A DNA stretch of 64,000 nt from a virus (IMGVR_UViG_3300035208_008180); one strand, 5' to 3'; shown: positions 4,375 through 58,693, numbered from the stretch's first letter. The notes: generated by a model not told the origin, from the sequence alone. Numbers and translations: made by a program.

Positions 4375-5034
4375 ATGCAATTCAAACAATGGTTATTACA
4401 TGAGCGTTACGGTCAATACAACACTAACAACACCATCATTGTTGATGTTCAGCCCATGTATGCACAGCACATGAATTTTGGCATTAAAAACTTCGCTGAA
4501 TTTTTAAAACAAACCTTAAAAAATCGAAAAGTAATATATTTTTTTAACGGAGATTCTATTGGTTCCAATGATAACAAAGAGGAAATTTCCAATTGGCTTG
4601 CAGAATCAGCCAGAGAAAATACGCCATATCCAGAAGACGACGATGAAGAAATATACTGGCAAGATCACGAAGACACCTACTCATTGTTCCATAACCGATG
4701 CCTATGGTATGATAAAGGTTATGGCTTCTTTAGGTCATGGATGGATCATGGAGTCAGTGATGCCACTATTATTAAAACAATTAGATATATGATAATGAAA
4801 CGCATCAATGACTCTAGAGACTTGGGAGAGGAAGAGCTTCAACTTATTACAAATGGAGAAGACATCCCATTGCACGACCCTTTGTTTATACCCTCCATTC
4901 CTCTGAATATTTTAAAACAATTCAGTGGAGCATTCCTTTGTGGAGGTGGTAAAAATGAATGCTTAAAAGAAGTGACACTTCTCATGAATGCTCTAAATAT
5001 AAAATATACAATTCTTTCAGAATTTACATATTAA
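4375..5034 (+). CDS. Cysteine hydrolase (isochorismatase/nicotinamidase-like) with N-terminal FxxW tag
   Basis: IIVDVQP, DKG and GGGKNEC supply a D-K-C triad; begins MQFKQWLLHE. Confidence 0.55.
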   Translation: MQFKQWLLHERYGQYNTNNTIIVDVQPMYAQHMNFGIKNFAEFLKQTLKNRKVIYFFNGDSIGSNDNKEEISNWLAESARENTPYPEDDDEEIYWQDHEDTYSLFHNRCLWYDKGYGFFRSWMDHGVSDATIIKTIRYMIMKRINDSRDLGEEELQLITNGEDIPLHDPLFIPSIPLNILKQFSGAFLCGGGKNECLKEVTLLMNALNIKYTILSEFTY

Positions 5035-5924
5035 ACCGCTACCGGAATTTTAATGGCCGCTTGCGGGTTGTAATCTACAATCTCAAAATCACTCATCTGA
5101 TACGAATAAATATCATCAGCCTTGTGCAAAATTAGCTTTGGAGAATCAGGTTTCGGTCTAGCCAGATATTCCTCAACGGCTGGTATTTGATCCTCGTAAA
5201 TATGAGAATCCGCTGTGCTGTGAATAAATTCATAAGGCTCCAAATCGCATTGCTGAGCCAACATATAAATTAAAGCACTGTAAAATTGAATGTTTGCTGG
5301 AATTCCCACAGGGAAGTCACAACTGCGTTGGGTCAACATCCCACTCAATTTACCATCATGCACAAAACACTGGAAAGTATAATGGCAAGGCGGCAGCCGC
5401 ATTTTCCATGTATCTAACGGATTCCACAACGAGAATAGATTTCGTCGGTCATCGGGATTTTCTTTTAAGGTTTTGACCATGTTGGCAAGTTGGTCAAAAC
5501 CACCCGCTCCATATTTCACCTTAAAATCCTGATCGCATTCAGTGACGGTGAATTCCTTGTCTCCGTCTCCATATTCGCCGCCAAAATGCCGTAGCTGGAA
5601 GCCGTATACAGGACCAAAGCTGCCCGGTATGAATCCATGTTTCTTTTCAAAATCATGATCTACCCACGGGGTCCATATCCCAGACCCTAATGCAATTAGA
5701 TCATTGTTGTTGGTAGAGCCTGAGAGAAACCACAACAATTCTCCAAAGATAGCCTTGGGCCACACTTTTCTCCCAGTTAGAAGGGGAAAATGCTCATTGA
5801 TTCTGTATCGGCTTTGGATGCCAAAAACAGCAACAGTTCTTACCCCCGTCCTGTTTTCCTTCCAAACTCCATTCTTAATAATGTTGCGTAAAGCATCGTC
5901 ATACGCCTGTAGGATGTATGTCAT
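5031..5924 (-). CDS. thyA: Thymidylate synthase
   Basis: NRTG, ELLWFLSG, GPVYGFQLR, LPPCH, QRSCD, HIYEDQ motifs. Confidence 0.97.
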   Translation of the reverse strand: MTYILQAYDDALRNIIKNGVWKENRTGVRTVAVFGIQSRYRINEHFPLLTGRKVWPKAIFGELLWFLSGSTNNNDLIALGSGIWTPWVDHDFEKKHGFIPGSFGPVYGFQLRHFGGEYGDGDKEFTVTECDQDFKVKYGAGGFDQLANMVKTLKENPDDRRNLFSLWNPLDTWKMRLPPCHYTFQCFVHDGKLSGMLTQRSCDFPVGIPANIQFYSALIYMLAQQCDLEPYEFIHSTADSHIYEDQIPAVEEYLARPKPDSPKLILHKADDIYSYQMSDFEIVDYNPQAAIKIPVAV

Positions 5925-6087
5925 CTTTATTTCCCCATGCAGCTTTTGCAAATCTCGTCTTTAGTTTTTCGAGAACTTGGTGCAACCGCCCCAAATCCTC
6001 CGTGGTCCAGCCATCTTCGTCAACCAGACTCTCAATAGCATCCAATAATTCATCTTTAGAAATCAAGCATGTAAATCGTGCGTTCAT
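5899..6087 (-). CDS. hypothetical protein
   Basis: 62 aa ORF abutting thyA. Confidence 0.45.
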   Translation of the reverse strand: MNARFTCLISKDELLDAIESLVDEDGWTTEDLGRLHQVLEKLKTRFAKAAWGNKDDIHPTGV

Positions 6088-6136
6088 AATAAAGCTATTT
6101 TATAACAAAACACAAATAAAGGCAATATATAAATTT

Positions 6137-6364
6137 ATGAAAACCTTTGCCCAATGGCTGGAGCATAATTACAACAACTCTGGCAATAAAATGGTACAGA
6201 AATTATGGAAATTCCAGGCAGAAAACCCGAACTCCTCATTTAGAGAATTCTGGCTGTTGCACGGCAATAACGACAAGAACGACCGTGAATTATGTCAGCA
6301 AGAATTCTATGGAATGAAAAACACACATGGGCAGCATGTTTCGGCAGCCGACTTGTTGAGGTAA
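6137..6364 (+). CDS. hypothetical protein with FxxW tag (putative internal virion protein)
   Basis: Real start MKTFAQWLE inside ORF 5918..6364, preceded by ATATATAAATTT. Confidence 0.7.
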   Translation: MKTFAQWLEHNYNNSGNKMVQKLWKFQAENPNSSFREFWLLHGNNDKNDRELCQQEFYGMKNTHGQHVSAADLLR

Positions 6365-6365
6365 T

Positions 6366-7115
6366 ATGAATTTTAAATTGTGGATAGAGAATGACGAAGA
6401 ATACGATACCTTTGGCGATCCCAAAGAATGGCATATCGGACAACTAGGCATCCTTGACGAATTTGGGCTAAAAGATTTCGCCGTCATTCAAGTTATCCGA
6501 TTTGAAGATGTTCCACAGGCTGATCCTGAATATTATAAAATGAAAGACCGCAATACTGTCATCTCTCTCAATAAATTTGGTGGCTCAACCTACAAAAGAG
6601 GTGAAAGTGTTCCTGTTAAAATTATTCAAGCATTCGGAAGTATATCAAAAAGTCACAAAGTTCATTTCTATGTCGGTGCCCAAAACCTCTATCGCACCAT
6701 TGATGACCTTATAAAAAAAGAAATGAAAGTGCTTTACCCAGACCTACTTATACAATTTTGGAACTCTCCACAATATCGGGCACTTATTACTGAATTTCCA
6801 CAACTAAAAATAAAAAACCAATCCCCTCTGGATCAGATTCAATACCAAGTCTACGACATTCAGGGATATACAGTCTATGTGATACCAGAGCCCCGAGTTC
6901 TAAAAAGACAAGCAGAATATCGAGCGTCTGGATATCCCCACCCTTTGCACGCCTACTACTTTGCCATTCCTGAGTTGAAGACTAGATCGCAAGACGAAAA
7001 AACAAGCCAATGGCTAAGGACGCAAAAAATGGGTGAAAATGGCATGTTCACCAGCGAACGAGAAGCACTAACTGGGGCGGAAAAATATATTAACTATTTA
7101 TTTTATGGAGAATGA
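6366..7115 (+). CDS. hypothetical protein with FxxW tag
   Basis: MNFKLWIENDEE; 249 aa. Confidence 0.75.
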   Translation: MNFKLWIENDEEYDTFGDPKEWHIGQLGILDEFGLKDFAVIQVIRFEDVPQADPEYYKMKDRNTVISLNKFGGSTYKRGESVPVKIIQAFGSISKSHKVHFYVGAQNLYRTIDDLIKKEMKVLYPDLLIQFWNSPQYRALITEFPQLKIKNQSPLDQIQYQVYDIQGYTVYVIPEPRVLKRQAEYRASGYPHPLHAYYFAIPELKTRSQDEKTSQWLRTQKMGENGMFTSEREALTGAEKYINYLFYGE

Positions 7116-10642: not shown

Positions 10643-10671
10643 ATAATATCACATATAAATTACTTTGTCAA
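10643..10671 (-). promoter_or_regulatory. sigma70-like promoter TTGACA-N17-TATTAT
   Basis: Perfect -35, 17-nt spacer, TATTAT -10, pointing into the noncoding region. Confidence 0.7.
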
Positions 10672-10848
10672 CTTCTTTTTCTTTTTCTTTTTGAAAAAAT
10701 CATCTTCATCAGTGTTAAACATCTGCGGGAATTTTCTTTGTATCATTGGCAAAGAAGGTCTAGCAAAAACAGCTATGCAACTCGTGCCAGTTGCATTTTC
10801 TTTTATAATTTCTTTTTCAATCCAATTTTTAAAGTTTATAGAGAGCAT
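10660..10848 (-). CDS. small Lys-tailed protein with FxxW tag
   Basis: MLSINFKNWIEKE...FFKKKKKKKLTK. Confidence 0.55.
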   Translation of the reverse strand: MLSINFKNWIEKEIIKENATGTSCIAVFARPSLPMIQRKFPQMFNTDEDDFFKKKKKKKLTK

Positions 10849-11574: not shown

Positions 11575-12117
11575 CTATTGTATAGGGGTTGCTTGAGGGA
11601 TGCCGCCTGGACCGGGTAGACTTCCAGGTATTCCACCACCGGCACCAGGACCAGTTGCCTTATCTTGGAACATGACTTTTTTGAACCAGTCATAATCAAC
11701 ATACTGCGGTATTCGTTTAGTGGCTCGGGCACCTTGGGGAACAATTTTCCACTTCATTCCTTGCCTGCCTGTTAAATCTCGTAGTCCTTTAGTTCCCGCT
11801 TTTGTAGTGGGCAAGAAATCAATTTTCATTCCCTTAATTTCTTCTCCGTCATTATCAACAGCTTTTACGGTAAAAGCTCGCAAGTTAGAAAGATTTCCGC
11901 CAGAGGGACCGATCCATGATCCAACGAACGTCTGCCCTCTTAGATCGTTAGGCTCAATACCTAATTCATAAGCTAAATTATTCCAGTCGGGCATTGGTTG
12001 GCCTCCACCCGGCATTCCTCCCGGCATTCCTCCCATAGGCGGTGCTCCTTGCATCCCTCCCATTCCAGGTGGCGGGGGTGGTCCTTGTTCCATAAATTGT
12101 CGAAAAGATAATGTCAT
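11575..12117 (-). CDS. Pro/Gly/Met-rich protein with FxxF tag
   Basis: True start likely MTLSFRQFMEQGPPPPPGMGG at 12117; the upstream part of the listed ORF is antisense to the 12137 gene. Confidence 0.7.
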   Translation of the reverse strand: MTLSFRQFMEQGPPPPPGMGGMQGAPPMGGMPGGMPGGGQPMPDWNNLAYELGIEPNDLRGQTFVGSWIGPSGGNLSNLRAFTVKAVDNDGEEIKGMKIDFLPTTKAGTKGLRDLTGRQGMKWKIVPQGARATKRIPQYVDYDWFKKVMFQDKATGPGAGGGIPGSLPGPGGIPQATPIQ

Positions 12118-12136
12118 TATAAAGATATATACCTCT
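12118..12136. promoter_or_regulatory. bidirectional TATATA box between divergent tagged genes
   Basis: 19-nt gap TATAAAGATATATACCTCT between head-to-head ATGs. Confidence 0.55.
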
Positions 12137-12574
12137 ATGAACACAACATTTGAACATTTTGTCGAAGAAAAAGCCCAAAACAACAAAGAGCAAATAAAAG
12201 CTATGTTAGGCTCCAATGATTTTGTTTTCTTCTTTGAAAAAAACAAAGAAATTTTTGGTGCCCCCGAAGAGAGCCGACTTATGTTTGCCCGCATGAAAAA
12301 CCCAGACCCCGAAGATAATGACTGGGTTAAAGAAGCTAATTTCAGCGGATTAAACCTCAATAGAGCCCTAAAGGGAGAGAAAACAGAAAGTCTATTTTCC
12401 CATACTGATTTGACCAAAATCAAAATATTGGACCAAGAAGAAGCATATGATAAATTGTCCAGATTAACTTCGGATACAGATAAGATAAAAACCGTTCTTT
12501 CTGACGATGATAATCCGCACCCAGAAGCTCCTGATGCGGCTCCAGGCATCCAACAATTAAAAGACAAAAAATGA
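12137..12574 (+). CDS. hypothetical protein with FxxF tag
   Basis: MNTTFEHFVEE; 145 aa. Confidence 0.75.
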   Translation: MNTTFEHFVEEKAQNNKEQIKAMLGSNDFVFFFEKNKEIFGAPEESRLMFARMKNPDPEDNDWVKEANFSGLNLNRALKGEKTESLFSHTDLTKIKILDQEEAYDKLSRLTSDTDKIKTVLSDDDNPHPEAPDAAPGIQQLKDKK

Positions 12575-13377
12575 ACTTTAGGCTATTTTTAGAGCGAGAA
12601 GAGGGTGCTATAGAATGGGATACATATTATCCCAAGTGGACTCCACGACAACTTGGCGATAGGGGCATGATATCCGCATACGTTTCTAATAAACATATCA
12701 GCATTGACCAAAGCCCCTATCATCCGATGTTGAAAAAAGCCCTAAGGATATTGCTGCGACAAAAGCCACATTTAGCAAACAAGCCCTTGGATTTTGATGG
12801 TTGGTCACCAGGAACATTACAACAATTCTTATATAGCTCAGAACCTATTGCCCCTAAAGATACACTCCCACAATTTATGTATCACGGCACATCCCTCCAT
12901 CGCTGGGAACACATTAAAGAAGATGGCTTAAAACCCCTAATTGCGAGTGGTGGAGAATATGGGGCAGAGCCAATGAGTGCTCCACTTACCAACCCTAATA
13001 ATGTTTACTTATCTGCAACTTTTGGAGCAGCTACCAGATTGGCCGCTTACGACGCTTCCAAAAAAGGAACAGGCGATGTTCCTGTTGTGTTGAAAATTAA
13101 CACCAAACAACTTGATCCTCAAAAAATCAGACCTGATGAAGAGTCTCGTGCTACAACATGGCAAAAAAGTCTGCATGGCTTAAACACTATCGCCTACGAA
13201 GGCGAGATACCACCACAATCCATAGAACTCTATAAAGCTTGGAATCAACAAACGGATAAGTGGGAAAACCCAGGACAGTGGCTAGAGCCAACTGATTTTA
13301 TAGCTCAACAAATGCTTCACAGGACAGGATATAAAGACATTCCCAACAGCACCGGCAAATATAAGTGGGCTAAATAG
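12571..13377 (+). CDS. ADP-ribosyltransferase-fold protein (YHGT; KptA/Tpt1 or PARP-like), tagged
   Basis: MNFRLFLE; MYHGTS...IKEDGLKP...VYLS...PVVLKIN...YEGEIPP. Confidence 0.6.
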   Translation: MNFRLFLEREEGAIEWDTYYPKWTPRQLGDRGMISAYVSNKHISIDQSPYHPMLKKALRILLRQKPHLANKPLDFDGWSPGTLQQFLYSSEPIAPKDTLPQFMYHGTSLHRWEHIKEDGLKPLIASGGEYGAEPMSAPLTNPNNVYLSATFGAATRLAAYDASKKGTGDVPVVLKINTKQLDPQKIRPDEESRATTWQKSLHGLNTIAYEGEIPPQSIELYKAWNQQTDKWENPGQWLEPTDFIAQQMLHRTGYKDIPNSTGKYKWAK

Positions 13378-13572: not shown

Positions 13573-14229
13573 ATGACATTGCCATTTGAAAACAATAAAG
13601 ACGTAAGAAAGTACCAGTGTTTTGTCTGTGGAGTGCAGTTCTTAGAACTCAACGAAATGACAGAGCACATCAAAGAAAAACACCAAGAAGGCAGAGATTA
13701 TGTGCTTTGTCCTTTGCTCTATTGCAAATGTTGCGTTAGGGATTTAGTTCATCATTTTAAAGCACGTCACCCTTCTCAGCCCCTGCCCAAAAACAGACAA
13801 ATGAAAGCTATTGTATGGAAAGATTTTACCGCCCAAGGAACGGCAAAAAAGAAAAAACAAAGATTTAAAGAGGGTTGGTATGTTTCTACAAAAATGAATA
13901 AGCAATTTTATTTTAGAAGCGGTTGGGAAGAAACTGTATTCGAATGTCTGGACCAAATGAATGAAGTAGCCGCTTATGAAGCAGAGCCTTTTAAAGTTCC
14001 CTACATCTGGGAAGGCACTCAGCACGAATACAATCCCGACATTCTGGTGGTGTTTAATGATGGGCGTAAAGAGGTTTGGGAAATAAAACCATCAGATCAA
14101 ACCTCTTTACAACAAAATAAAAATAAATGGCATGCAGCTAATGAAATGTGTAAAGCTAGAGGATGGGAATTTATTGTAATGACAGAGAAGGGAATCAATC
14201 AATTAAAGAAAAGGGTTGGAAAGAAATGA
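13573..14229 (+). CDS. TnsA-like PD-(D/E)xK nuclease / T4 gp4-like head completion protein with N-terminal C2H2 zinc fingers
   Basis: FRSGWE, EPFKVPY, YNPD, EIKP, KWHAA...GWEFIVMTE; CFVC..H..H and CP..C..H..H. Confidence 0.75.
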   Translation: MTLPFENNKDVRKYQCFVCGVQFLELNEMTEHIKEKHQEGRDYVLCPLLYCKCCVRDLVHHFKARHPSQPLPKNRQMKAIVWKDFTAQGTAKKKKQRFKEGWYVSTKMNKQFYFRSGWEETVFECLDQMNEVAAYEAEPFKVPYIWEGTQHEYNPDILVVFNDGRKEVWEIKPSDQTSLQQNKNKWHAANEMCKARGWEFIVMTEKGINQLKKRVGKK

Positions 14230-14804
14230 CTTTTCGCATCTGGTTGGAACAGAATCGTCCACAAGTTGAGCCGAATTTTTCAATGCAAGTCTGGGATGCC
14301 TGCATTAAGCACGTTCCTGTTGGTACTACTATTTACCGAGGGTTTAGAATCCATAAAGATTTGCGAAAAATGACCATTCGACAAATTCTCTCACAATCTT
14401 TTAAAAGCAATGCAAAACCCTTCGATCCGTGGACTTTGGATTTTGCCGTAGCTCAAAGATTTGCTGCCGGGGCTCACAGCAATGCTGATGGAACATCAGG
14501 AAGAATGGAAGACACAGCCAGAGTAATTGTATCAGCTAAAATTGTCCAACATAGAAATGTAATAGATTTGAAACAATTTGGCGACAAAATAATGGGCCAC
14601 AACGTAAGCAAAGGCAGTGGCATTAACACCTATTGGCAACCTAGAATGATTGGCAAAGCAACAATCGATGATCGTGATGTGGAAAATGAAATACCCATTT
14701 TAAGAACCGCCTATGCTAACCCTCAACTATTTCCTTTAACTGGATATTGGACAGAAGAAAACGGACAATGGGTGCAAGGAAACAAACCAGCAGCCTTATC
14801 TTAA
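14226..14804 (+). CDS. R-S-E-type ADP-ribosyltransferase-like protein, tagged
   Basis: True start MTFRIWLE; IYRG, PWTLDFAVAQRFA, ENEI motifs. Confidence 0.55.
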   Translation: MTFRIWLEQNRPQVEPNFSMQVWDACIKHVPVGTTIYRGFRIHKDLRKMTIRQILSQSFKSNAKPFDPWTLDFAVAQRFAAGAHSNADGTSGRMEDTARVIVSAKIVQHRNVIDLKQFGDKIMGHNVSKGSGINTYWQPRMIGKATIDDRDVENEIPILRTAYANPQLFPLTGYWTEENGQWVQGNKPAALS

Positions 14805-15115
14805 AACCCATCAATAAAAATAACAGTCTCTACACCTTCTTTGCTTTCTAAATATACTGTATCTGGCTCTATTGTGTTATCTATCACAAGCTCCAATCGC
14901 CGTTCTCCAAATCCTGTTTCTAATTGCTCCTCAAAACTTGGCATACAATAAAAAGTAGAGGCAATATCACTGGTAGTTCTGAGTTTGGTGGTGCTGAAAC
15001 CACAACGCCCTTTGATGAAATAATGCAATGCATTAATTTTTTCAACTTCAGTGGCGGGTGGATGGTCAACAACTATATTAAAGTCATAAGTTAAAGCGTT
15101 CATGATCTTAGCCAT
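14801..15115 (-). CDS. hypothetical protein
   Basis: 104 aa ORF coupled to the CCA gene. Confidence 0.6.
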   Translation of the reverse strand: MAKIMNALTYDFNIVVDHPPATEVEKINALHYFIKGRCGFSTTKLRTTSDIASTFYCMPSFEEQLETGFGERRLELVIDNTIEPDTVYLESKEGVETVIFIDGF

Positions 15116-16317
15116 TCCCTAAATCCCATCTTACGCAACATTTCCTTGGTGTTATGTTGCATAATATGTTGCCCAATTTCTTTGCCTTGTAATTCGGCTG
15201 CCCCTGGAACTTCATCCCTGTTCATCAATTGGTGTGTTCGCAACTGTTGAATAGCACGAGTATCCAGACCATGCAACTGACTCCATGCTTCCAAATCCTC
15301 AGGTGACATATCCCGCTGCCCTTTTCTCAGACTCCACAAGAAGGCAGGATGCTCTTTTAGCTTATCTTGAATATTGGGCAAATGAAGCAAATTGACCAAA
15401 TACACCACATTGTCCACTTCATCATTAGTGTATTTTAATTGATTTAATTTTCTTCTGATCTTTTCCACATCATTGAGCCGCAACAGATGGGCAACCAATA
15501 TAACAGGATTCTTGGTCTCCACATAATCATGGCTGACCACTAACCCTGGAAATACATATTTTTGCAACAATCCTAATTGATGATAGAGACTTACATAACC
15601 CACAACTGATTTAGCAGATTTTAAACCCTTAATAAATTCGTCTCTGACCCGCTCGGGTGCCACAGCCACGCCATTATCGCTTGCCAGCCCATTATTGACT
15701 CGTTTTTCAATAGCCGCACGAGTTGCTTCATCAATGCCTCTGATGTCGCCATGATTTACACGGCAATAGAACCGCACATATCTTAAAACTCTCAGAGCAT
15801 CCTCGCCAAACCGTTGGTCGGGATCACCCACAGTTTTAACACGTCGCTCTTTCAAGTCTTGTAATCCGCCAACCAAATCAACCACTTCATGACTGTCTAA
15901 ATCATAATAAAGAGCGTTGATTGTTAAATCTCTTCTTTCGGCATCGTCTTGGATATGGGAAAATTTATCAGCTACTTGACGACTGCCAGAATCCTTGCGA
16001 AAAGTGGCAATTTCATAATCTTCATTACCAATTGAGGCTATAACCACCCCGAATTGATTTCCTACAGCACCTTTGGTATGGTTAATGCCACCAGCTTTAA
16101 GAATTTCCATTACTTCTGTGGGCTGTGCATTCGTGGCTAAATCGAAATCTTTGGGCTGTTTTCCCAATACTGCATCTCGTACTGCACCTCCCACCAAATA
16201 TAGATGTTTGCCCGATTTTTTAAATACTCTATGAATAACATGAATATCCTCTGGCAAATTGATTGACAGGTGCATTCGCACTTCTTTACTTTCTAAAAAT
16301 TGCATAAAACTAACCAT
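15100..16317 (-). CDS. cca: CCA-adding tRNA nucleotidyltransferase / poly(A) polymerase family, tagged
   Basis: LVGGAVRD, KDFDLAT, EIATFR, DAERRDLTINAL, EDALRVLR, ERVRDE; begins MVSFMQFLE. Confidence 0.9.
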   Translation of the reverse strand: MVSFMQFLESKEVRMHLSINLPEDIHVIHRVFKKSGKHLYLVGGAVRDAVLGKQPKDFDLATNAQPTEVMEILKAGGINHTKGAVGNQFGVVIASIGNEDYEIATFRKDSGSRQVADKFSHIQDDAERRDLTINALYYDLDSHEVVDLVGGLQDLKERRVKTVGDPDQRFGEDALRVLRYVRFYCRVNHGDIRGIDEATRAAIEKRVNNGLASDNGVAVAPERVRDEFIKGLKSAKSVVGYVSLYHQLGLLQKYVFPGLVVSHDYVETKNPVILVAHLLRLNDVEKIRRKLNQLKYTNDEVDNVVYLVNLLHLPNIQDKLKEHPAFLWSLRKGQRDMSPEDLEAWSQLHGLDTRAIQQLRTHQLMNRDEVPGAAELQGKEIGQHIMQHNTKEMLRKMGFREWLRS

Positions 16318-16336
16318 ACCTTATATATAATATAAA
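16318..16336. promoter_or_regulatory. bidirectional TATATA box between divergent tagged genes
   Basis: 19-nt gap ACCTTATATATAATATAAA. Confidence 0.55.
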
Positions 16337-16981
16337 ATGAACTTTAGAAATTGGATAGAGCACAAATGGTACGAATTTAAAGATACCGTGGAATTATATC
16401 ACGGCACCTCTAGTGCCTTGCTTCCAATTATTAAAACGAATGGATTGGTGCCACCTGATGAGTGTTTAGAGTCATATGCTATTAAAATAATCAAATCATA
16501 TGGAGTTGCCGCAAGCCCGCAATTAATGGAATGGATTCACAAATACGCAATTTCATCAAGAGCTAATGAACCAAACAACAAAATAGCTAACGTAATTTAT
16601 TTAACTCCCAAATTCGAGAATGCAAAAAACTACGCAAAATCCACCCATAAATTTGGGGGAGAAATGGCGGCTGACATTTGGCGAGCTATCAATGTAATTG
16701 AAAGCAAAAAAAGAGGTTTGCCAAAAATGCAGGAAATTATACCTCCCATTTACAAAGAATCTCATCCTGTAGTATTAGAAGTAGAAATCCCATCTAAATG
16801 GATGAATACATATCATGATTTAGCACAACGATATAAAGATGCATTAGACTACTGGGCAACCTTGAAATCTAAGCCAGATGTTCACGATTTTATGGAGAAA
16901 GAATTTGGTCGCTTTGAAATAAGAGTAGAAGAGACTATTCCTGCGTCAATGATAAGAAAAATTCACGCAATAATGTCCTGA
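16337..16981 (+). CDS. ADP-ribosyltransferase-fold protein (YHGT), tagged
   Basis: MNFRNWIE; LYHGTSS...IKTNGL...IYLT...AKNYA...PVVLEV...EIRV..TIP. Confidence 0.6.
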   Translation: MNFRNWIEHKWYEFKDTVELYHGTSSALLPIIKTNGLVPPDECLESYAIKIIKSYGVAASPQLMEWIHKYAISSRANEPNNKIANVIYLTPKFENAKNYAKSTHKFGGEMAADIWRAINVIESKKRGLPKMQEIIPPIYKESHPVVLEVEIPSKWMNTYHDLAQRYKDALDYWATLKSKPDVHDFMEKEFGRFEIRVEETIPASMIRKIHAIMS

Positions 16982-20817: not shown

Positions 20818-21171
20818 ATGAGTTTTAGACAATTTGTAGAAGATGCTGCGGCTTGGGATGCTTTTCAAGACGTTTTCTTTGTTGGAGAATACGAAGGGCA
20901 AGCAAGTGATTTCTATTGCTGGCTTCGCCAACGCTGGAGTGCCAATCAATCCCCTCAAGATTATGATTACAAAGGATTGGAAAGATTGTTTGCTGATTGG
21001 AAAAAAAGCACAGTTCGTGGTGCATGGTGTGCAAAAATGGATCGAAGTCGAGATCGCAAACGAAGAAAAGACTTCGGCCCAGGCAAATATTGGGCACCTA
21101 CATCAGCAGGTGTCTTCCTAAATAAAAACTTTGTAAAAGGATGGAGAGGTATCAATCCAGCAAACCCATGA
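20818..21171 (+). CDS. hypothetical protein with FxxF tag
   Basis: MSFRQFVE preceded by CTATATACTTCT. Confidence 0.7.
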   Translation: MSFRQFVEDAAAWDAFQDVFFVGEYEGQASDFYCWLRQRWSANQSPQDYDYKGLERLFADWKKSTVRGAWCAKMDRSRDRKRRKDFGPGKYWAPTSAGVFLNKNFVKGWRGINPANP

Positions 21172-21584
21172 AATTCAAACAATGGCTTGAATCCATATAC
21201 TATCACGGCACCACACCCGAAAACGCCGAATCTATCCTAAAAAATGGCATCGACCCAGATCGCTATAAAAGCGGGATGTTCAGAGGATTCTACCTTACAC
21301 CAAACCCAACTTACTTCAATGGCTTTAGCGGGCCAAAGAAAACAATTTTGGCCATAGAAATTGATGACTCGCAAATACTCGATGTAGAAAGCGTCAAGGA
21401 TGAGGATTTGCTGCCAATTGATCCTCACTTCAAAATGATGAGCCCAATGTATAAAAATACTATGATTATGAAGTTGGCTCTTGAAAAAGGATATTCTGGC
21501 GTCAAAAACGGAAAAGAAGTTGTTCTTTTTACTGACAGAGCAATCCGCTCTATTCGACCCATAAATTCCAGTCATTCAAAGTAG
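21168..21584 (+). CDS. PARP-like (H-Y-E) ADP-ribosyltransferase, tagged
   Basis: True start MKFKQWLE; YYHGT..ENAESILKNG...GFYLT...GYSGV...KEVVLF. Confidence 0.65.
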   Translation: MKFKQWLESIYYHGTTPENAESILKNGIDPDRYKSGMFRGFYLTPNPTYFNGFSGPKKTILAIEIDDSQILDVESVKDEDLLPIDPHFKMMSPMYKNTMIMKLALEKGYSGVKNGKEVVLFTDRAIRSIRPINSSHSK

Positions 21585-23920: not shown

Positions 23921-24277
23921 ATGAGAACATTCTTCGAATCCATTCAAAAACGTGTGCATCTTCGCTTTGTGGCTACCACTGGTCCTGAGCATGCTCAGGG
24001 CCTAATGCACCAAGAGCCATTAAAACATAACGAAGGTGCCCTTTTTGTTTATGAAGCCCCGTCAAAATCAAAATTTTGGAACAAGAACGTAAACTTTCCC
24101 ATAGAAATTGGTTTCTTTGATATCAATAAAAAATTAGTTGATATTCGACAATTACAAGCCAATCAAACACAAGAAATTGGCTGCAAACAAGAGTTTGTTT
24201 ATGCTTTGGAAGTTTCTACCGGATTTTTTTCACAAAAAGATATTGGCAAATCATTGGATGACTTCATACTAAGCTAA
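23921..24277 (+). CDS. DUF192 family protein
   Basis: AQGLM, GALF, FWNKNVNFPIEIGF, YALEV; TATATA upstream of MRTFFE. Confidence 0.8.
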   Translation: MRTFFESIQKRVHLRFVATTGPEHAQGLMHQEPLKHNEGALFVYEAPSKSKFWNKNVNFPIEIGFFDINKKLVDIRQLQANQTQEIGCKQEFVYALEVSTGFFSQKDIGKSLDDFILS

Positions 24278-38982: not shown

Positions 38983-39294
38983 TCATATCCCTGCTAGACC
39001 AACCTTGTGATCGAATCCAAGTATCACTTCAACCCTGGTTTGGATTTCTCGGATGGAATGGCCAAGTAAGTGATAACCCTTGTGTTCTAATTCGTCCTGA
39101 GTTTTCTCCCAATCCAACCTGCGTTTTTTCTCATGTGGCAGCGGCTCCACAGGAAGATCATTGTCAGCACAAATCTGTCGAACCATTTCTTCATGAAACC
39201 GTTCCCAAAAAAGATTATATTTTGCTCTCCAAACAGAATAACGCACCTTTTGGCCACGATAAGCACAACGCTCTTTGTTCTTGACTTTCCTCAT
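38983..39294 (-). CDS. hypothetical protein
   Basis: 103 aa ORF. Confidence 0.55.
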   Translation of the reverse strand: MRKVKNKERCAYRGQKVRYSVWRAKYNLFWERFHEEMVRQICADNDLPVEPLPHEKKRRLDWEKTQDELEHKGYHLLGHSIREIQTRVEVILGFDHKVGLAGI

Positions 39295-40589
39295 TTCACT
39301 ACTTTCAACTGATTGAGATTTCTACCTCTATAGGCTTTAACCCGCAATCTTAAACCAGGATACAACCCATCCTCTTCCTCTAAAATGTCTTTACACAAAT
39401 TTAAAACATTTATTTCTTGCCCCACATTTGGAATTATATAATATCCATCGTGAACATGAAAGCTAATTCTTGCAATTCCCTGAATAATTTTATGTAATTT
39501 CACCAATTTGTGTAAACAAATAACAGATGCTGGGGCCTGGATGTGGAAGTTTCTTAGTTGTGTGCGATAATATTCTTCTTCAAATAAACGATTTCGCCCA
39601 TAGTAATCAATTGCCCTATTATCTTTTACGTCCTTGTTGTTCAACCAGCCCATAGCTATGGGAAACTTTTTATAAATTCGACTAATAATGGTTTTTGCCG
39701 TTTCCTCAGCTACATCATTTTTCTTGGCTAAAGTAGCCGCACCCATGCCAAATGCCACAGGCAAAAAGAACCCTTTGCACACCTTTCGCCGTGATGGAGA
39801 ACATTCGAGCCCGGTTATGGTTTCCCAAATAGACTCATACACATCTCGACTACGATTTAAGATATTGCCTAACAAAGTGTCTTTGGATAGCCATTGCAAC
39901 ACGGAAACTTCCATATTTTTGAAGTCGAAATACAAAAAATCCTTGCTATCGAAATCAGGAGTGGTTAAAAATTGCTTCTCAGATTCTTCAAGGGTATGTG
40001 GATTGAAGGACTTATTAAAAGCATCCCTGCACTTCATTCGACCATTCTTCTGCCCCTCAATCTCATAATAGGGATGTAAAATAGCCTTTTGATCGGTATG
40101 TGCCAATCCCAAGGTTTCAATCCGAGGAAGAACCTCTCGAATCAATGGAGTATATATGGTTTTATATATGGTTTTTGTCTGCTCCCAACTAGAATTACCA
40201 ACAACCCTTGCCAATCGCCCTTTGGCTTGATTAAAACTACCAGGACAGGGCTCAGAATGCCCCAGGAATGCCTCAATTAGCTTTAAATCAACGATTGATG
40301 CCGATATGCTCAATTCCTTGCCCGTAATTGCTAAAATAAAACTAAACAAATTCTTGGCATTCCAGGCAATCAACACCTTGGACTGATCTAAATAATACTT
40401 TAGCTCGCCAATAATATTAATAAGTTCCGCTGGCTTATGGCTTAAAGGAATATCCATCCTTTTATTCGGAGCCATAATTACAAGGGTAGCGGGTGCCTTT
40501 GGATTGGTAAAATCCAATACTTCGGGAGAAGTGGCAACAAAAAGGGTTTGACCAACAAGAGACTCTAGAGTTTCTGCCAATTCCGACAT
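39291..40589 (-). CDS. Family A DNA polymerase, polymerase domain only (divergent)
   Basis: NGRM, motif A YFDFKNMEV, motif B RKVCKGFFLPVAFGMG, NFHIQ, motif C VHDG. Confidence 0.8.
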   Translation of the reverse strand: MSELAETLESLVGQTLFVATSPEVLDFTNPKAPATLVIMAPNKRMDIPLSHKPAELINIIGELKYYLDQSKVLIAWNAKNLFSFILAITGKELSISASIVDLKLIEAFLGHSEPCPGSFNQAKGRLARVVGNSSWEQTKTIYKTIYTPLIREVLPRIETLGLAHTDQKAILHPYYEIEGQKNGRMKCRDAFNKSFNPHTLEESEKQFLTTPDFDSKDFLYFDFKNMEVSVLQWLSKDTLLGNILNRSRDVYESIWETITGLECSPSRRKVCKGFFLPVAFGMGAATLAKKNDVAEETAKTIISRIYKKFPIAMGWLNNKDVKDNRAIDYYGRNRLFEEEYYRTQLRNFHIQAPASVICLHKLVKLHKIIQGIARISFHVHDGYYIIPNVGQEINVLNLCKDILEEEDGLYPGLRLRVKAYRGRNLNQLKVVK

Positions 40590-43502: not shown

Positions 43503-43682
43503 ATGATAAACATAATCCTCCCAGAAACCGTGGCGGGTTTTGCCCGCCCTATATGCCCACATTGTGATAAAGAATATGATTTAGAGATTGTTGATAAAGG
43601 CCCCACTAAATGCATTGAATGTAGTAGATGGTTTAAGGTGTCGTCTAAAACCATTTACCAGTCCAGAGAAATTTTAGAATAA
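43503..43682 (+). CDS. small Zn-ribbon protein (59 aa)
   Basis: Translated by hand: ...ICPHCDKEY...KCIECSRWFKV. Confidence 0.6.
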   Translation: MINIILPETVAGFARPICPHCDKEYDLEIVDKGPTKCIECSRWFKVSSKTIYQSREILE

Positions 43683-44225
43683 TTTTCTTTGAGGCGGTTC
43701 GTCTGGCCATAAAGCAAACTTTTTTTGCCAAGGCTTGAATCTTAATGTTCCAATTGGCTCGGGTGCTGGTATTTCTATTGGTTTTGGTGGTATTTCTATT
43801 GGTTTTGGTGGTATTTCTATTGGTTTTGGTGGTATTTCTATTGGTTTTGGTGGCACAACGATTGGTGCTGGTTTTTCTATTGGCTTTGGTACTTCGACTG
43901 GTTCTTCCGGCTTTTCTGGCTTAAAGCCCTCTTCATCACTCAGTCTAATTCCCCCTCTTATTCTGCTTCTTTCTAATTGAGCACCAATAAGAGACAATAC
44001 TTCTTCTATACTGTCATCTTCCGCTTTTTTAAGTCTTTTTAATACTTTAGATTTAAATTCATCATAATCAAAACTATATTGATGTTTTTCATACCATCTT
44101 TCTATTGCTCTGACTGCAACTGGACCTAATTTAGAAAACTCTATATCGCCATCGATAAAATTTAAGTATAGTTCTTCTGCTCGGGACAGAGCACTTTCAG
44201 AAATTATCCATTCTTTGAAATTCAT
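43674..44225 (-). CDS. Pro-rich repeat protein with FxxW tag
   Basis: MNFKEWIISE; (PKPIEIP)x4. Confidence 0.75.
   Translation of the reverse strand: MNFKEWIISESALSRAEELYLNFIDGDIEFSKLGPVAVRAIERWYEKHQYSFDYDEFKSKVLKRLKKAEDDSIEEVLSLIGAQLERSRIRGGIRLSDEEGFKPEKPEEPVEVPKPIEKPAPIVVPPKPIEIPPKPIEIPPKPIEIPPKPIEIPAPEPIGTLRFKPWQKKFALWPDEPPQRKLF
43767..43853. repeat. 21-bp coding tandem repeat, about 4 copies
   Basis: TGGTATTTCTATTGGTTTTGG repeated. Confidence 0.9.
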
Positions 44226-44227: not shown

Positions 44228-45004
44228 TTAATACCAATACATCCAGTTAGAAATGCATTCAACAACTTCCTCCATCGGCTGGCTTGGGAAGAAATATAAC
44301 TCTAAATCCTGTTGTGATTGTTGCCATTCACGCCCTTTTTGCGGAGAATAAATATTAAAATTACTTAATTTAATGACGCCGTGATCTTTGTTATAATTTA
44401 GCCTTGTATGATTTTCTTCTATGCGTCTTTGTTGTCTCCACCCTTGTCCCATTCCTCGAACTGAAAAACGGATGATATATTCATCTTCATCATTTTTTCT
44501 AGTTCCTTCGAAAATAAACAATGAATTGGATGTCTTTTTTAACATATTACTCATAGAGGCTGCTAATTCTTCTAAATCTTTATAGTCATGATTGGCTGAA
44601 TCAAGTGGTTCCATATCAACTTGTTTGATAACTTCCATAATTTCTTGAGATACTGATTCTTCTTGACCGCCTGAGCCATCTTGAGGAATTTGATAAAACC
44701 TTTTACAACCCCATCGTTTCATGCCTTGTAAGTCTATATTGAGCCTTTCGACCATAACACAAAGCTTGTTTCCAATTCTTACCCTTATGGCTCCTGGGTC
44801 TTGTCCCCATTGAATTTCATTGATAAATCTGATATTGGGTTCTTTGACTCCCAAAGGATATTGTCCAAGACTGGTCATCAATCGAGTAAGACTAAATTCT
44901 TTGACTGGTTTTTCAAGTTTTTCTGGCTTAGGATCAGCATAGAGTTCTCTTTCAAACCCAAAAATATCTTTTGATTCAATCCAGCATTTAAAGGTATTTT
45001 TCAT
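44228..45004 (-). CDS. hypothetical protein with FxxW tag
   Basis: MKNTFKCWIE; 258 aa. Confidence 0.75.
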   Translation of the reverse strand: MKNTFKCWIESKDIFGFERELYADPKPEKLEKPVKEFSLTRLMTSLGQYPLGVKEPNIRFINEIQWGQDPGAIRVRIGNKLCVMVERLNIDLQGMKRWGCKRFYQIPQDGSGGQEESVSQEIMEVIKQVDMEPLDSANHDYKDLEELAASMSNMLKKTSNSLFIFEGTRKNDEDEYIIRFSVRGMGQGWRQQRRIEENHTRLNYNKDHGVIKLSNFNIYSPQKGREWQQSQQDLELYFFPSQPMEEVVECISNWMYWY

Positions 45005-45240
45005 TCGGCGGCTCTCACAACTTTCTCTTTTACCATATTGTCAAAATCATCAACATAAACTTGATAAATTCTATCTGTGCGTTTGTTTTTCAAATTGTAA
45101 GAATCTCTATCTTCTGAAGGCATTACAAGATATGTTCCTTTGGGCAAGGAAATAGCTCCCCTGGCACCCGCAGGTATATTTTGAAGCACAAACACCCAAT
45201 TACCCGGTTCTGGGTAAGTAAGCCATTCACGAAATGTCAT
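45001..45240 (-). CDS. hypothetical protein with FxxW tag
   Basis: MTFREWL preceded by CTATATATTCTT. Confidence 0.7.
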   Translation of the reverse strand: MTFREWLTYPEPGNWVFVLQNIPAGARGAISLPKGTYLVMPSEDRDSYNLKNKRTDRIYQVYVDDFDNMVKEKVVRAAE

Positions 45241-45602: not shown

Positions 45603-45908
45603 ATGAAATTCTCTATTTGGTTAGAATCGCAGTTTAACGACGATATAGAAAAAGCTTTACTTAATTTAAAGTATACTGCACCTGATCTAGATATGAGCAG
45701 ATTTGATGATTTAATTTCTGATCTAAATGACAGGGGTTTAATTCCTGCTGGTGTCAATCCTGCACGCTTTGCAGCGGCTTTGAAATCACGCATAAAAAAC
45801 CCACCTCTGGACAAAATAGATAAAACTGGGGAACGTATCCCGCCAGAACATCGAGATGCTGTAGAGCTATCACTAAGAAAATATTGGGGAGCATATAAAA
45901 AAAGATGA
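45603..45908 (+). CDS. hypothetical protein with FxxW tag
   Basis: MKFSIWLE preceded by CTATATAATAAAGT. Confidence 0.75.
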   Translation: MKFSIWLESQFNDDIEKALLNLKYTAPDLDMSRFDDLISDLNDRGLIPAGVNPARFAAALKSRIKNPPLDKIDKTGERIPPEHRDAVELSLRKYWGAYKKR

Positions 45909-46186
45909 AATTTTCCATTTGGCTTGAAACACGTAGTATAGAAAATCTCAAAAAAACCATATTGGTTTCTTTATTTCCCACCCTCGATAGCCATCAGCAG
46001 GAAGATAATTTGGTACTAACTATGGATACTTTAGACCAAGACCTGATTGATAGCATGTTGGATAATGGAAATGTCAAAGAGTATCTTGGCGAACGTAATC
46101 CACACCAATTCTTACAATCTAAAAAAGGGATCACTGTTCAGCAATTTGTTGATTGGTTGGCAAGTGGTCAAGCTGCTACTGTTTAA
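45905..46186 (+). CDS. hypothetical protein with FxxW tag
   Basis: MKFSIWLE, same tag as the preceding gene. Confidence 0.75.
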   Translation: MKFSIWLETRSIENLKKTILVSLFPTLDSHQQEDNLVLTMDTLDQDLIDSMLDNGNVKEYLGERNPHQFLQSKKGITVQQFVDWLASGQAATV

Positions 46187-55416: not shown

Positions 55417-55696
55417 CTTCGCACTCCTTTTGGCGGTAGATTTCTACGTCATCGGGTCCATTGTAAATGATTGTATACTTCATTCCGTGAATAGTTATGG
55501 GAATTGCTTCCCCACTCTTCGGACTATCTATAACAGATCGAGACACAGGAGCAACAGGCATATGTGTAATGGATGGCTCTTTTGATTTTCCATTGATGAC
55601 AGCAAAAATGACCGGCACCAACAACGCAAGCAAAATGCCAGCAATAGTAATTACTACCAACAATTCAACTAACGTAAATGCTTTTCTACTCTTCAT
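55373..55696 (-). CDS. Prepilin-type N-terminal cleavage/methylation protein
   Basis: True start MKSRKAFTLVELLVVITIAGILLALLVPV. Confidence 0.85.
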   Translation of the reverse strand: MKSRKAFTLVELLVVITIAGILLALLVPVIFAVINGKSKEPSITHMPVAPVSRSVIDSPKSGEAIPITIHGMKYTIIYNGPDDVEIYRQKECEDATNSSTNRKAVEK

Positions 55697-56213: not shown

Positions 56214-56321
56214 GATTTTTCTCCGTAAAAGGCTTCTTTAACCACCCCCATTATACTTCAGAAAACGGGGTTGTAAACTACCCATAGCGGAAAAATTGCC
56301 GTATGAAAGGGGGGTGTGATC

Positions 56322-56816
56322 CTATGGAAACGGAATGACTTCATGCCGATCATGCCTATACCAGTATTGCCCCAAAGCTTCTTCAAAACCTCCACAGACT
56401 CGCCATTTTTCATTAGCCCACGTTAATGATACGCTATCAACTGGCGGTTTTTTTCTGGCCTTGTCGGCAAATGGCAAAAGATACTTGGGCAGTTTTTTAT
56501 TTCTTCTGGCAAGTACGTCGTTTACATAACCAGGAAGCCTGCCTTCAAAGTCACGCACAAAATCAGTTTCTCCTGGTCTTGGTTCATATACGCTGTATAT
56601 TCCAATGATTTTGTTATATCGCTTTACCAAATATATTTTCGCCCCATCTTTGGGATCGATTCCCTCCACAGAAATAGTGAAGCCATACTTTTGTTCCAAG
56701 TATTTAGAAAAATTTTCTGCACCGGGCAATTCTATTTTATTGGTCTTTGGACCAATCGCACCAGATGCTTTCCATATTTTTTTAAATCTGTTGTCGTTTG
56801 CTTTGCTTGTGTTCAT
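56322..56816 (-). CDS. hypothetical protein
   Basis: 164 aa ORF. Confidence 0.65.
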   Translation of the reverse strand: MNTSKANDNRFKKIWKASGAIGPKTNKIELPGAENFSKYLEQKYGFTISVEGIDPKDGAKIYLVKRYNKIIGIYSVYEPRPGETDFVRDFEGRLPGYVNDVLARRNKKLPKYLLPFADKARKKPPVDSVSLTWANEKWRVCGGFEEALGQYWYRHDRHEVIPFP

Positions 56817-57012
56817 TGAGCTTCCTACATACGTTGATAAGCGTATTTAAAGAGGCAGAGCGGTGATACCCTCCGCAGTATTTACACTTGTAAACTGTCT
56901 GATTTTTGCAAATAGCCGCTTCTTCAGTGGTGTATCTTTTTTTGCGGCCACAAGCCCGAAGACGACGATTATTTTGTTTGGCTATTTCTGCAAAATGAGC
57001 ATATTTATTCAT
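56782..57012 (-). CDS. small zinc-binding protein
   Basis: C..KKRY...YKCKYCGGYH. Confidence 0.65.
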   Translation of the reverse strand: MNKYAHFAEIAKQNNRRLRACGRKKRYTTEEAAICKNQTVYKCKYCGGYHRSASLNTLINVCRKLNEHKQSKRQQI

Positions 57013-57899
57013 AAATCTACCATTACATCTACTCGTTGGCCGGGAAGTAAATTACAATTTTTTAAAGAGAGCCAAAATTCTCTGGTCTTTGTATCTGTTT
57101 TTTCAGAGGGCATATCAGAAAATAATACCTTTCTTCCTAAAAAAGGTGCTGCCTGAGTTACAATTGCTTTTATTGGTTGGAAATTATCAAATGTAATTTT
57201 AGCAGATTGTCCTACTTTTATTAAAGAGGCATCAAGTTCATCAACATAAGCCCTGACTCGTAATTCTGAAATATCTGCCATTATAATTAATGGCATTTGA
57301 GAGGTGGCAATTTCTCCAATTCTGGCATCTATTTTTAGAATTTTGCCATCTATTGGTGCTTCTATTTTTGTGTGGTCTAATTTTATTTGTGCCAATTGTA
57401 TTTGGGATTTTGATATTTCTATTTGTGACTTGGCAACATCAATCTCTGCCCTCAAAGAATCGTAGGAACATTTTAATATGTCCATACCCTCTTCAGACAA
57501 TACTTTCTTCTTGTTTAATATAATCCCTCTTTCCAAATTCAACTTTGCCAACTTTAGTTGTGCCTCTTTAGCCTGTAACAATCCTTTGTTTGCTAATTCC
57601 TGAACTATAGCCAACTCTTTCTCGAAAAAATATTGTCTGGCATCTATTTCTAGTAAAACATCTCCTTTTTTTACTAATTGATTTTCCCGAACAGGAATGC
57701 TTTTTATCTGCCCGGAGATTAGGACACACAAATATGTGTTCTCCGTTTTTCCTTCGATTCTGCCTGAAGCAAAAACACATTGTTTTTGTGGTAGCGGCGG
57801 TCTCACAATAGCAGGGCTGCTATTGTGATCTATTAAAAATGCTATACCTAATATGACGCCAATACATAAAACAAAAAAAGCAATTATTTTACCACGCAT
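57009..57899 (-). CDS. HlyD-family membrane fusion (periplasmic adaptor) protein
   Basis: N-terminal TM, ISGQI..I.V.E...VKKGDVL, coiled coil, IEAPIDGKI, LLPG..V.V. Confidence 0.88.
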   Translation of the reverse strand: MRGKIIAFFVLCIGVILGIAFLIDHNSSPAIVRPPLPQKQCVFASGRIEGKTENTYLCVLISGQIKSIPVRENQLVKKGDVLLEIDARQYFFEKELAIVQELANKGLLQAKEAQLKLAKLNLERGIILNKKKVLSEEGMDILKCSYDSLRAEIDVAKSQIEISKSQIQLAQIKLDHTKIEAPIDGKILKIDARIGEIATSQMPLIIMADISELRVRAYVDELDASLIKVGQSAKITFDNFQPIKAIVTQAAPFLGRKVLFSDMPSEKTDTKTREFWLSLKNCNLLPGQRVDVMVDL

Positions 57900-57901
57900 G
57901 G

Positions 57902-58693
57902 TCAATAATTCATCCAAAGATTTTCAGTTACTACTGTTTTTTTACGAGTAGCAGCACCCTTTAGTTCCGCACCCCTGCCAATTGACAATTTTTTGTAGCC
58001 TTTTAGCTCTTTGGCATAAAGGTCCGTTTCATAACCACTAAGAGCCCATCTGAAAGACACACTCTTTAACATCAATAATAACACAGAATGATCGATTTGT
58101 CCATAATACTCATCCGATGTTTCGTGATAGGGCGGATCAAGATAAACAAAATCTTTGGGACCATAGGTAGTCCAGGGAAGATTTTGCCAATGAAGAGAGG
58201 TAATTTTCACGCCCTGAGCAGACAGCAATTCCTTTGCCATTGCAGCACGGGGAATATATTTGTCTCTAGTAAAAGGTGGATGTGACCCCATTTTGCCTTC
58301 TGGAGCTTCATACCCCAAATTAGCACCAGCCGACCAACCTTTTCCACCCCATGTAATTTCAGGCTCCAAAACAACACCAAGAGGGTTTTCTTTCTCTGCT
58401 TGTTTTTGCCAATGCTGAAAACTTTTTTTAGACGTAATAGATTTAGGGAGTTTTTCCAAGTCAGCGGCTAAAAGAGAGTTGAAAAAGTTTCCCCGCAAGT
58501 CATTGATATGCCATTCTTGGAAATCTAATTCCTGCTTGGCTTTGAAAAACACATTACCCCGCCCAGCAAAAGGCTCTACATAAATTCTTCCTTCTTTAGG
58601 GAAATGGGCAAGCAACCAATTGCGTAATCGACTTTTGCCCCCTACTGTGCGAAATGACGGTGTTTTCATTCCCATCCATTGTTTAAAATCCAT
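57902..58693 (-). CDS. dam: DNA adenine methylase with FxxW tag
   Basis: MDFKQWMG then VGGKSRL, YVEPFAGRG, YLDPPY, WALSGY, ENLWMNY; CTATATAAAAT upstream. Confidence 0.9.
   Translation of the reverse strand: MDFKQWMGMKTPSFRTVGGKSRLRNWLLAHFPKEGRIYVEPFAGRGNVFFKAKQELDFQEWHINDLRGNFFNSLLAADLEKLPKSITSKKSFQHWQKQAEKENPLGVVLEPEITWGGKGWSAGANLGYEAPEGKMGSHPPFTRDKYIPRAAMAKELLSAQGVKITSLHWQNLPWTTYGPKDFVYLDPPYHETSDEYYGQIDHSVLLLMLKSVSFRWALSGYETDLYAKELKGYKKLSIGRGAELKGAATRKKTVVTENLWMNY

Follow-up and report, generated by a model that had tools for sequence, protein, structure and literature searches.

Tagged genes in the window

The 64,000-nt stretch of viral DNA analyzed here (IMGVR_UViG_3300035208_008180, hereafter the window) contains a series of genes whose predicted proteins open with the same kind of short peptide, M-x-F-[KR]-x-[WF]-[LIV]-E in its short form, which we call the tag. 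A first-pass annotation of this DNA had listed 19 such peptides and read them as a portable packaging signal of the type known from bacteriophage T4. All 19 were recovered, to the exact coordinate and strand, and the core F-x-x-[WF]-[LIVM] is present in 17 of them. At 23921 the peptide is only partial, its second aromatic residue being missing. In the peptides at 58693 and 45240, no Glu immediately follows the aliphatic residue.

On the left side of the window, the plus strand encodes a tagged open reading frame (ORF) of 219 amino acids (4375-5034), with the Glu of its tag in an L-x-x-E register and no significant Pfam family, followed by a 75-amino-acid ORF with an MKTF-type tag and a TATATAA box 4 nt upstream (6137-6364) and by a 249-amino-acid ORF that is Shine-Dalgarno-led and belongs to no known family (6366-7115). 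The tag of a 62-amino-acid ORF on the minus strand (10660-10848) is preceded by a four-residue prefix. Two divergent tagged genes, of 180 amino acids (11575-12117, minus strand) and 145 amino acids (12137-12574, plus strand), are separated by a 19-bp spacer with a TATATA box (12118-12136). Downstream on the plus strand stand tagged ORFs of 268 amino acids (12571-13377) and 192 amino acids (14226-14804). The former is a borderline match to Tpt1/KptA (PF01885), within the ADP-ribosyltransferase (ART) superfamily: it scores 26.8 bits against a cut-off of 26 over a single short stretch, and a sequence search of the PDB gave a very weak Tpt1 match only. A second divergent pair consists of a class II nucleotidyltransferase of the CCA-adding/poly(A) polymerase family (405 amino acids; 15100-16317, minus strand; PF01743, 123 bits) and a 214-amino-acid protein assigned to the H-Y-E type of ART-fold enzymes from an invariant triad, an AlphaFold2 (AF2) model and a fold match (16337-16981, plus strand). 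Between them lies a 19-bp palindromic TATATA box of leaderless type on both strands (16318-16336).

Further along the plus strand are a 117-amino-acid ORF with a CTATATA box upstream (20818-21171), a 138-amino-acid ORF with a Y-H-G-T motif immediately past the tag, possibly an ART relative (21168-21584), and the 118-amino-acid DUF192 protein (PF02643, 63.8 bits) that bears the partial tag (23921-24277). Another group comprises three minus-strand ORFs, of 183 (43674-44225), 258 (44228-45004) and 79 amino acids (45001-45240), the last with a CTATATA box upstream and without Glu immediately past the tag, and two plus-strand ORFs, of 101 amino acids with a CTATATAA box upstream (45603-45908) and of 93 amino acids (45905-46186). 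The eight-residue tags of these two neighbors are identical and their bodies unrelated. On the right side, both on the minus strand, are a D12-class Dam DNA adenine methyltransferase (263 amino acids; 57902-58693; PF02086), whose tag lacks the Glu, and a weaker extra candidate of 76 amino acids with the form Y-x-x-F-A-E (56782-57012), which the first-pass list did not include.

A motif confined to protein N-termini

The window is part of a 340-kb contig, C200 (G000:C200:160001-224000), which was binned together with a second contig, C242, that also carries the tag. Aligned on the first aromatic residue, the tags give the consensus M-x-[TNKE]-F-[KR]-[QEN]-[WF]-[LIV]-E, and conservation ends immediately past the Glu, 8-10 residues in. 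A neutral gene call took the longest ORFs from their first ATG. Against an expectation taken from internal positions, the core F-x-x-[WF]-[LIVM] was found at 33 of 586 N-termini on C200, where about 2.3 were expected, and at 12 of 113 on C242. Of 3209 proteins on the ~70% GC contigs that share the bin, 10 had it; on the remaining low-GC contigs it was almost absent. A scan for gapped patterns, blind to the motif, placed F..W.E (17 against 0.16 expected) at the top of the patterns specific to N-termini, together with F..WL (18 against 0.69). The motif is at least 14-fold commoner at N-termini than internally, a comparison that had been proposed as a check on the packaging reading.

A strict census, counting tags with a Glu no more than three residues past the aliphatic position on C200 and C242, found 41 tagged genes among ~700 ORFs, compared with 5 of 2670 sequences after internal Met residues; a loose census found 69. 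The tagged share of the ORFs on the two contigs is then 6-9%, roughly 40-70 genes, and variants escaped the census, such as four consecutive tagged genes at C200:282.7-284.5 kb. Among loosely defined tags, the first position is F in 63 of 70 and the second W, F or Y in all 70; the best-conserved residue is Trp (TGG). The codons at the conserved columns vary: Phe is TTT in 25 cases and TTC in 14, the aliphatic position uses 14 codons and the Lys/Arg position six. Since codons are free to vary at conserved positions, it is the peptide, rather than the DNA, that is constrained. The bodies behind the tags are unrelated, as had been claimed, with 47 proteins falling into 44 BLAST clusters. The tag of the Dam family is followed by a Met; dual isoforms through such a second Met were dropped as a general feature, as genome-wide it is not enriched (10 of 55 tagged proteins and 97 of 644 others, p = 0.56).

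Gene arrangement and an upstream box

Many tagged genes had been said to lie against the dominant strand, and this held for C200 as a whole, where 61% of tagged and 21% of untagged genes are on the plus strand (p = 2e-7). Similarly, 59% of tagged genes are opposite to the local majority strand, compared with 23% of untagged genes (p = 3e-6). Tagged genes are also clustered, with 17 near-adjacent pairs where 5.5 were expected.

The most enriched 7-mer upstream of gene starts, beside Shine-Dalgarno words, is CTATATA. In its general form, [CT]TA[TA]ATA, the box has no conserved -35 element and stands 2-9 nt from the ATG, with a peak at 4-6 nt; it precedes the ATG of 35 genes, 15 of which are tagged. 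The 4-6 nt distance implies leaderless or nearly leaderless mRNAs. As TATATA is palindromic, divergent genes whose ATGs lie within 19-20 bp of each other share a single box, as at 16317 (minus) and 16337 (plus) and at 12117 (minus) and 12137 (plus). The shared box suggests a bidirectional promoter that would give leaderless mRNAs both ways. More divergent pairs on one palindromic TATATA box, with ATGs 15-20 bp apart, occur at C200:2869/2890, C200:226951/226969 and C242:38087/38103. The tag is not an element of leaderless translation, for other tagged genes are led by ordinary Shine-Dalgarno sequences.

Correspondence with the T4 capsid-targeting sequence

In T4, the capsid-targeting sequence (CTS) of the internal proteins (IPs) was reportedly described by Mullaney and Black in 1996. 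The CTS, its portability and the loading of varied proteins by means of it in T4-like phages are established (PMC3012670, PMC9026906, PMC9958956). Mapping of the IPIII CTS by amber suppression assigned targeting mainly to residues 4 and 7 and processing to residues 8 and 10 (PMC9026906). The prohead protease gp21 cuts after Glu, as the first-pass annotation had stated, in I/L-x-E and more weakly in x-x-E (PMC12991175).

A search of the T4 record (NC_000866) for CTS-encoding DNA returned ipII and ipIII (exact), ipI and gene 61.1. IPII and IPIII do open with MKTYQEFIAE, the peptide to which the tag had been compared, and IPI opens with MKTFKEF, so that the aromatic residues are Y4/F7 in the former two and F4/F7 in the latter. 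The Glu at residue 19 of IPI accounts for the 76-residue mature IPI* from a 95-residue precursor. Gene 61.1 (NC_000866: 18966-19130, minus strand), beside the primase gene, encodes a hypothetical 54-residue protein, gp61.1, with the CTS-like opening MKTFKEFIKE.

Like the T4 CTS, the tag is an N-terminal peptide of about ten residues on unrelated bodies, in which positions 4 and 7 are aromatic, position 8 is aliphatic and a Glu commonly stands at the end, and the variants MKTFKDFMRE and MKTYKEFAEQ of this phage are strings nearly identical to those of T4. By alignment, the conserved columns of the tag are the residues mapped for targeting in T4 IPIII and, apart from the register of the Glu, those mapped for processing.

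Head machinery of the same phage

The bin G000 is mixed: most of its contigs are ~70% GC, and 17 contigs (~1 Mb), including C200, are ~40% GC. It is a chimera of ~70% GC bacterial and ~40% GC contigs, with the tag common only to C200 and C242; the other low-GC contigs (C137, C226, C44 and others) are untagged and may come from something else. C242 carries head genes and C200 a tail sheath and two tail-tube paralogues; the two contigs are therefore complementary parts of one huge phage of at least 437 kb.

The head genes of C242 stand in T4 order. They encode a T4-type portal (PF07230, 258 bits), a prohead protease (C242:20543-21256; Peptidase_S77, PF03420, 89.5 bits; head maturation protease in PHROGs) and a Gp23 major capsid protein (PF07068, 289 bits). 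Aligned with gp21 from the T4 record, the protease keeps the equivalents of the catalytic His85 and Ser140, and its N-terminus has L-L-E, parallel to the self-cleavage site of gp21, L-I-E-9 (PMC9026906). The head proteins open with L-x-E sites, as those of T4 do. Between the protease and the major capsid protein, in the position of the T4 scaffold gp22, an acidic helical protein of 307 residues (C242:19623-20543) has 23 hydrophobic-x-E sites; from its position and composition, and with no family match, we infer that it is scaffold-like. A tagged acidic ORF of 100 residues (pI 4.5) lies between the portal and protease genes. T4 carries the acidic core proteins gp67 and gp68 at the corresponding place among its head genes. 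Directly upstream of the prohead protease gene, an acidic protein of 572 residues (C242:21268-22983, minus strand), which likewise has 23 hydrophobic-x-E sites and matches no family, may be an extra core or scaffold component.

Among sequenced phages, the nearest relative is LR756511.1, which is uncultured, measures 595,163 bp and has a major capsid protein that is 72% identical; cultured T4-like phages reach ~30-35%. Over its whole record, LR756511.1 has 36 tagged N-termini among 1067 ORFs, where 4.7 were expected. Homologs of 14 of 58 tagged proteins were found there, and 13 of these 14 open with the tag or a near variant at body identities of 32-56%. Faster turnover of tagged genes was rejected: LR756511.1 has homologs of 27% of tagged and 30% of untagged genes, so cargo turnover is no faster than that of the rest of the genome.

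Portability of the tag

Three enzyme families allowed the tag to be followed across homologs. Most of 64 Dam homologs begin at the domain itself, with a G-G-K motif at residues 9-11, and a subset that includes the window protein (57902-58693) carries 8-18 extra residues, which are the tag. The AF2 model of Dam has a mean predicted local distance difference test (pLDDT) score of 90. Its tag forms a short helix (residues 3-7) and lies outside the fold, and the first ten residues average 56.

An exhaustive search with the 214-amino-acid ART protein gave 76 representatives, whose conserved body opens at a W-W motif. Ahead of this body, most homologs have nothing; the others have a tag like that of C200 or a different eight-residue peptide that ends in a canonical L-x-E, and the boundary always falls after the Glu. 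An untagged ART paralogue is present in the same genome (C200:47233-47841). Among the homologs P0198-P0231, from another set of genomes, many have the eight-residue opening M-R-x-x-[ED]-L-x-E directly before the body, with a canonical L-x-E protease site.

The nucleotidyltransferase (15100-16317) keeps the tag in homologs down to 39% identity, and remoter phage-like homologs bear other N-terminal peptides. In contigs of other clades, genes that neighbor the nucleotidyltransferase gene carry that clade's own peptide, which means that the tag goes with the phage lineage rather than with the enzyme. The differing peptides on the orthologous nucleotidyltransferase suggest lineage-specific address tags. 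In IMG/VR contigs L003-L006 and L009 (31-35% GC), the nucleotidyltransferase and several neighbors share an opening of the type M-K-x-x-I-K-x-I-L-R-E. Judged from these alignments, the tag is a discrete, portable add-on.

Identity and properties of the tagged proteins

Among the enzyme identities proposed in the first pass, the nucleotidyltransferase (PolyA_pol head), the D12-class Dam and the DUF192 protein were borne out by Pfam, and one ART by fold. The DPPY region of Dam is invariant in the alignment of its homologs. In the 214-amino-acid protein (16337-16981), H22, Y99 and E109 are invariant in 57 homologs, and its AF2 model has a pLDDT of 94. VIA-align matched this model to the ART domain of KptA (Z 11.4, root-mean-square deviation 3.1 Å over 88 residues, 24% identity) and to TreX, an Rhs ART toxin (Z 10.7), essentially all 50 rows being ART folds; with Foldseek, every match was an ART fold, but a weak one. 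On the strength of this model, the protein is an ART-fold enzyme of the H-Y-E clade. A Y-H-G-[TS] motif stands immediately past the tag in four further tagged proteins, and one weak PARP match was obtained with Pfam among tagged proteins outside the window. Two other tagged proteins, at C200:227585-228325 and C242:94648-95700, have weak J-domain (DnaJ) matches that begin ~10 residues past the tag.

For most tagged proteins, no family was found in Pfam or PHROGs, the latter giving none for nine of ten proteins searched, and sequence searches of the PDB with two tagged proteins gave nothing useful. Many are small (61-140 amino acids) and without a known fold. The tagged proteins, taken as mature bodies, are the more basic group (median isoelectric point 8.2 versus 6.3 for the rest, p = 0.019), a shift replicated in LR756511.1 (8.3 versus 6.5, p = 0.003). 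T4 internal proteins are basic.

Discussion

The head machinery, the match of mapped residues, the portability and conservation of the tag, and the presence of a tagged ART-fold enzyme together support, in silico, the packaging signal of T4 type proposed by the first-pass annotation. We consider it likely that the tag serves this phage as its own form of the T4 CTS, extended about tenfold and placed on enzymes. The phage would then probably fill its head in advance with an unusually large set of enzymes to be injected. In the mechanism that we infer, an N-terminal amphipathic helix (aromatic, x, x, aromatic, aliphatic) would dock the newly made protein on the scaffolding core during prohead assembly. 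The prohead protease, a Peptidase_S77 of the gp21 type, would then cut after the Glu that ends the tag, leaving the mature protein free and encapsidated, and the freed protein would enter the next host cell along with the DNA. Such a system would have been scaled from the three to four proteins of T4 to roughly 40-70. Besides many small proteins without a known function, its cargo would comprise ART-fold enzymes, the Dam methylase, a nucleotidyltransferase of CCA-adding type and J-domain-like proteins.

It is also possible, and we offer this more tentatively, that a lineage-specific and exchangeable address peptide loads dozens of enzymes, among them several ARTs, the CCA-type nucleotidyltransferase, Dam and J-domain-like proteins, as an injected "starter proteome" that precedes phage transcription. 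New cargo would then be recruited by grafting the tag onto a captured gene, in many cases along with a leaderless TATATA promoter cassette.

The likeness to the T4 CTS extends to the surroundings of the tag, as the phage encodes a gp21-family protease, a scaffold-like protein, Gp23 and a T4 portal, and its cargo is basic on average. The two systems differ in scale, with roughly 40-70 tagged genes here against three IPs and the CTS-like opening of gp61.1 in T4. They also differ in the peptide, whose second aromatic residue is here mostly Trp and whose Glu usually comes one residue earlier than in I-A-E. The putative cargo here includes recognizable enzymes (ART, nucleotidyltransferase and Dam), and many of the tagged genes are leaderless-type units on the minority strand.

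A packaged enzyme has a precedent in T4 Alt, an ADP-ribosyltransferase that is carried in the head and injected (PMC9958956; PMC5694885). In both phages, an ART-fold enzyme with an N-terminal propeptide is found together with a gp21-type protease, and the 214-amino-acid enzyme, like Alt, would enter with the DNA and modify host targets before phage gene expression. Alt, however, is of the R-S-E type, ~70 kDa, with propeptides of its own at both ends, whereas the enzyme described here has 214 amino acids, is of the H-Y-E type and comes nearest in fold to Tpt1/KptA and DarT; in addition, at least four more Y-H-G-T proteins are tagged.

Among giant phages, those of the SPN3US type, which are phiKZ-like, have ejection proteins with long N-terminal propeptides (PMC5694885, PMC7411985). 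Their heads also hold many internal proteins (>50 head proteins), which a prohead protease cuts after Glu and which are ejected into the host. Their propeptides, in contrast, are 80-130 residues long and share no short common motif, and the cleavage motif is A/S/G-x-E. We know of no T4-type gp22 scaffold in SPN3US-type phages.

Several observations weigh against an expanded CTS. The register of the Glu is one of them: in loose tags, a Glu stands 1-3 residues past the aliphatic position in 41 of 69, and about a third have none nearby. Even among the 41 strict tags, it follows the aliphatic residue directly (aromatic-[LIV]-E) in 26, and 15 have L-x-E or L-x-x-E; in the former, the aromatic residue occupies P3. 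The scaffold-like protein of C242 had no tag-like repeat (aromatic-x-x-aromatic-aliphatic), and therefore no partner site for the tag was identified. One would not readily expect a Dam methylase or a tRNA nucleotidyltransferase as head cargo. Finally, most tagged genes run on the opposite strand from the head and tail genes. The T4 late promoter, TATAAATA, is a gp55-dependent box with a -10 element only. In the present genome, the portal gene has a [CT]TA[TA]ATA-type box 43 nt upstream, no TATATA-type box was seen before the tail genes, and no gp55 homolog was found with T4 gp55 as the query.

Alternatively, the tag could address or control proteins for some machinery unrelated to the prohead, for instance as a degron that times proteolysis or as a dock for a shared chaperone or membrane complex, with its likeness to the T4 CTS due to convergence. 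Only 8-10 residues are common, short amphipathic N-terminal helices have many uses, and two tagged proteins have weak matches to J-domains. The minority-strand units with their own box also look independently transcribed and could mark an early class. We nevertheless regard this explanation as rather unlikely, because the tag agrees position for position with residues mapped experimentally in T4, because the same phage has the cognate protease and head genes, and because the tag ends in Glu like gp21 substrates and the alternative tags on the same enzyme families end in L-x-E.

Another explanation retains the CTS origin and the delivery to the prohead core, and differs in the fate of the cargo: most tagged proteins would be transient, degraded and expelled like gp67 and gp68, and would not be injected. 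T4 gp22, gp67 and gp68 are indeed broken down to peptides (PMC9958956), a small acidic tagged ORF adjoins the head genes, and the many tagged proteins of 61-140 amino acids without a known fold would suit such a role. Several tagged proteins, however, are intact enzymes whose catalytic residues are kept (the H-Y-E triad of the ART, the DPPY region of Dam, and the nucleotidyltransferase), and the tagged bodies are on the whole basic like the retained internal proteins of T4, unlike the acidic core proteins. We judge it unlikely that most of the cargo is lost in this way. That the pattern is a requirement of translation starts (AT-rich, unstructured 5′ ends or a leaderless downstream element) and no protein signal might be read from the AT-rich first codons and from the 15 tagged genes among the 35 with a box 2-9 nt before the ATG, but it is highly improbable and largely refuted by the codon data, as the codons vary at conserved positions, the best-conserved residue is encoded by TGG alone, Shine-Dalgarno leaders of the ordinary kind precede many tagged genes, the majority of leaderless-type genes lack the tag, and the tag is held at the amino-acid level in diverged homologs.

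An expanded CTS would matter for the biology of these phages. Host defenses first meet a phage in the form of its injected proteins, as illustrated in T4 by the restriction inhibitor IPI* and by Alt, the ART that modifies RNA polymerase. In the full-text literature searched, we came upon no description of huge uncultured phages with a large repertoire of CTS-tagged enzymes. If a short tag does mark head cargo, the injected arsenal of such phages could be read from sequence alone, and each genome would yield dozens of candidate anti-defense and host-takeover proteins. Enzymes rarely seen as virion components, such as a tRNA nucleotidyltransferase and a Dam methylase, may then travel in capsids. 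Lineage-specific tags on orthologous enzymes would offer a natural experiment on the co-evolution of address and scaffold, and short tags could widen the protein-packaging toolbox of T4.

Other features of the locus stand apart from the tagged genes. Among the large genes of the window that lack the tag are those for three helicases, PolA (a family A DNA polymerase) and RecA/UvsX, in line with the earlier remark that no replication gene carries it; the others encode a DnaB-like ATPase, a radical SAM enzyme and a flavoprotein. The polymerase gene (39294-40589) is a family A fragment in a phage with T4-type head genes, and the neighboring 551-amino-acid ORF has no Pfam match. T4 itself uses a family B polymerase. 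A megablast search of the window against phages gave no match, and no tRNAs were found in the window. In LR756511.1, a second and weaker Peptidase_S77 paralogue (242621-242989, minus strand; 34.8 bits) is located far from the head module. The motif-blind scan also returned a second family of N-terminus-specific patterns, a serine-rich tag on small proteins beside the radical SAM enzyme (61388-62790 of the window), which is distinct from the CTS-like tag.

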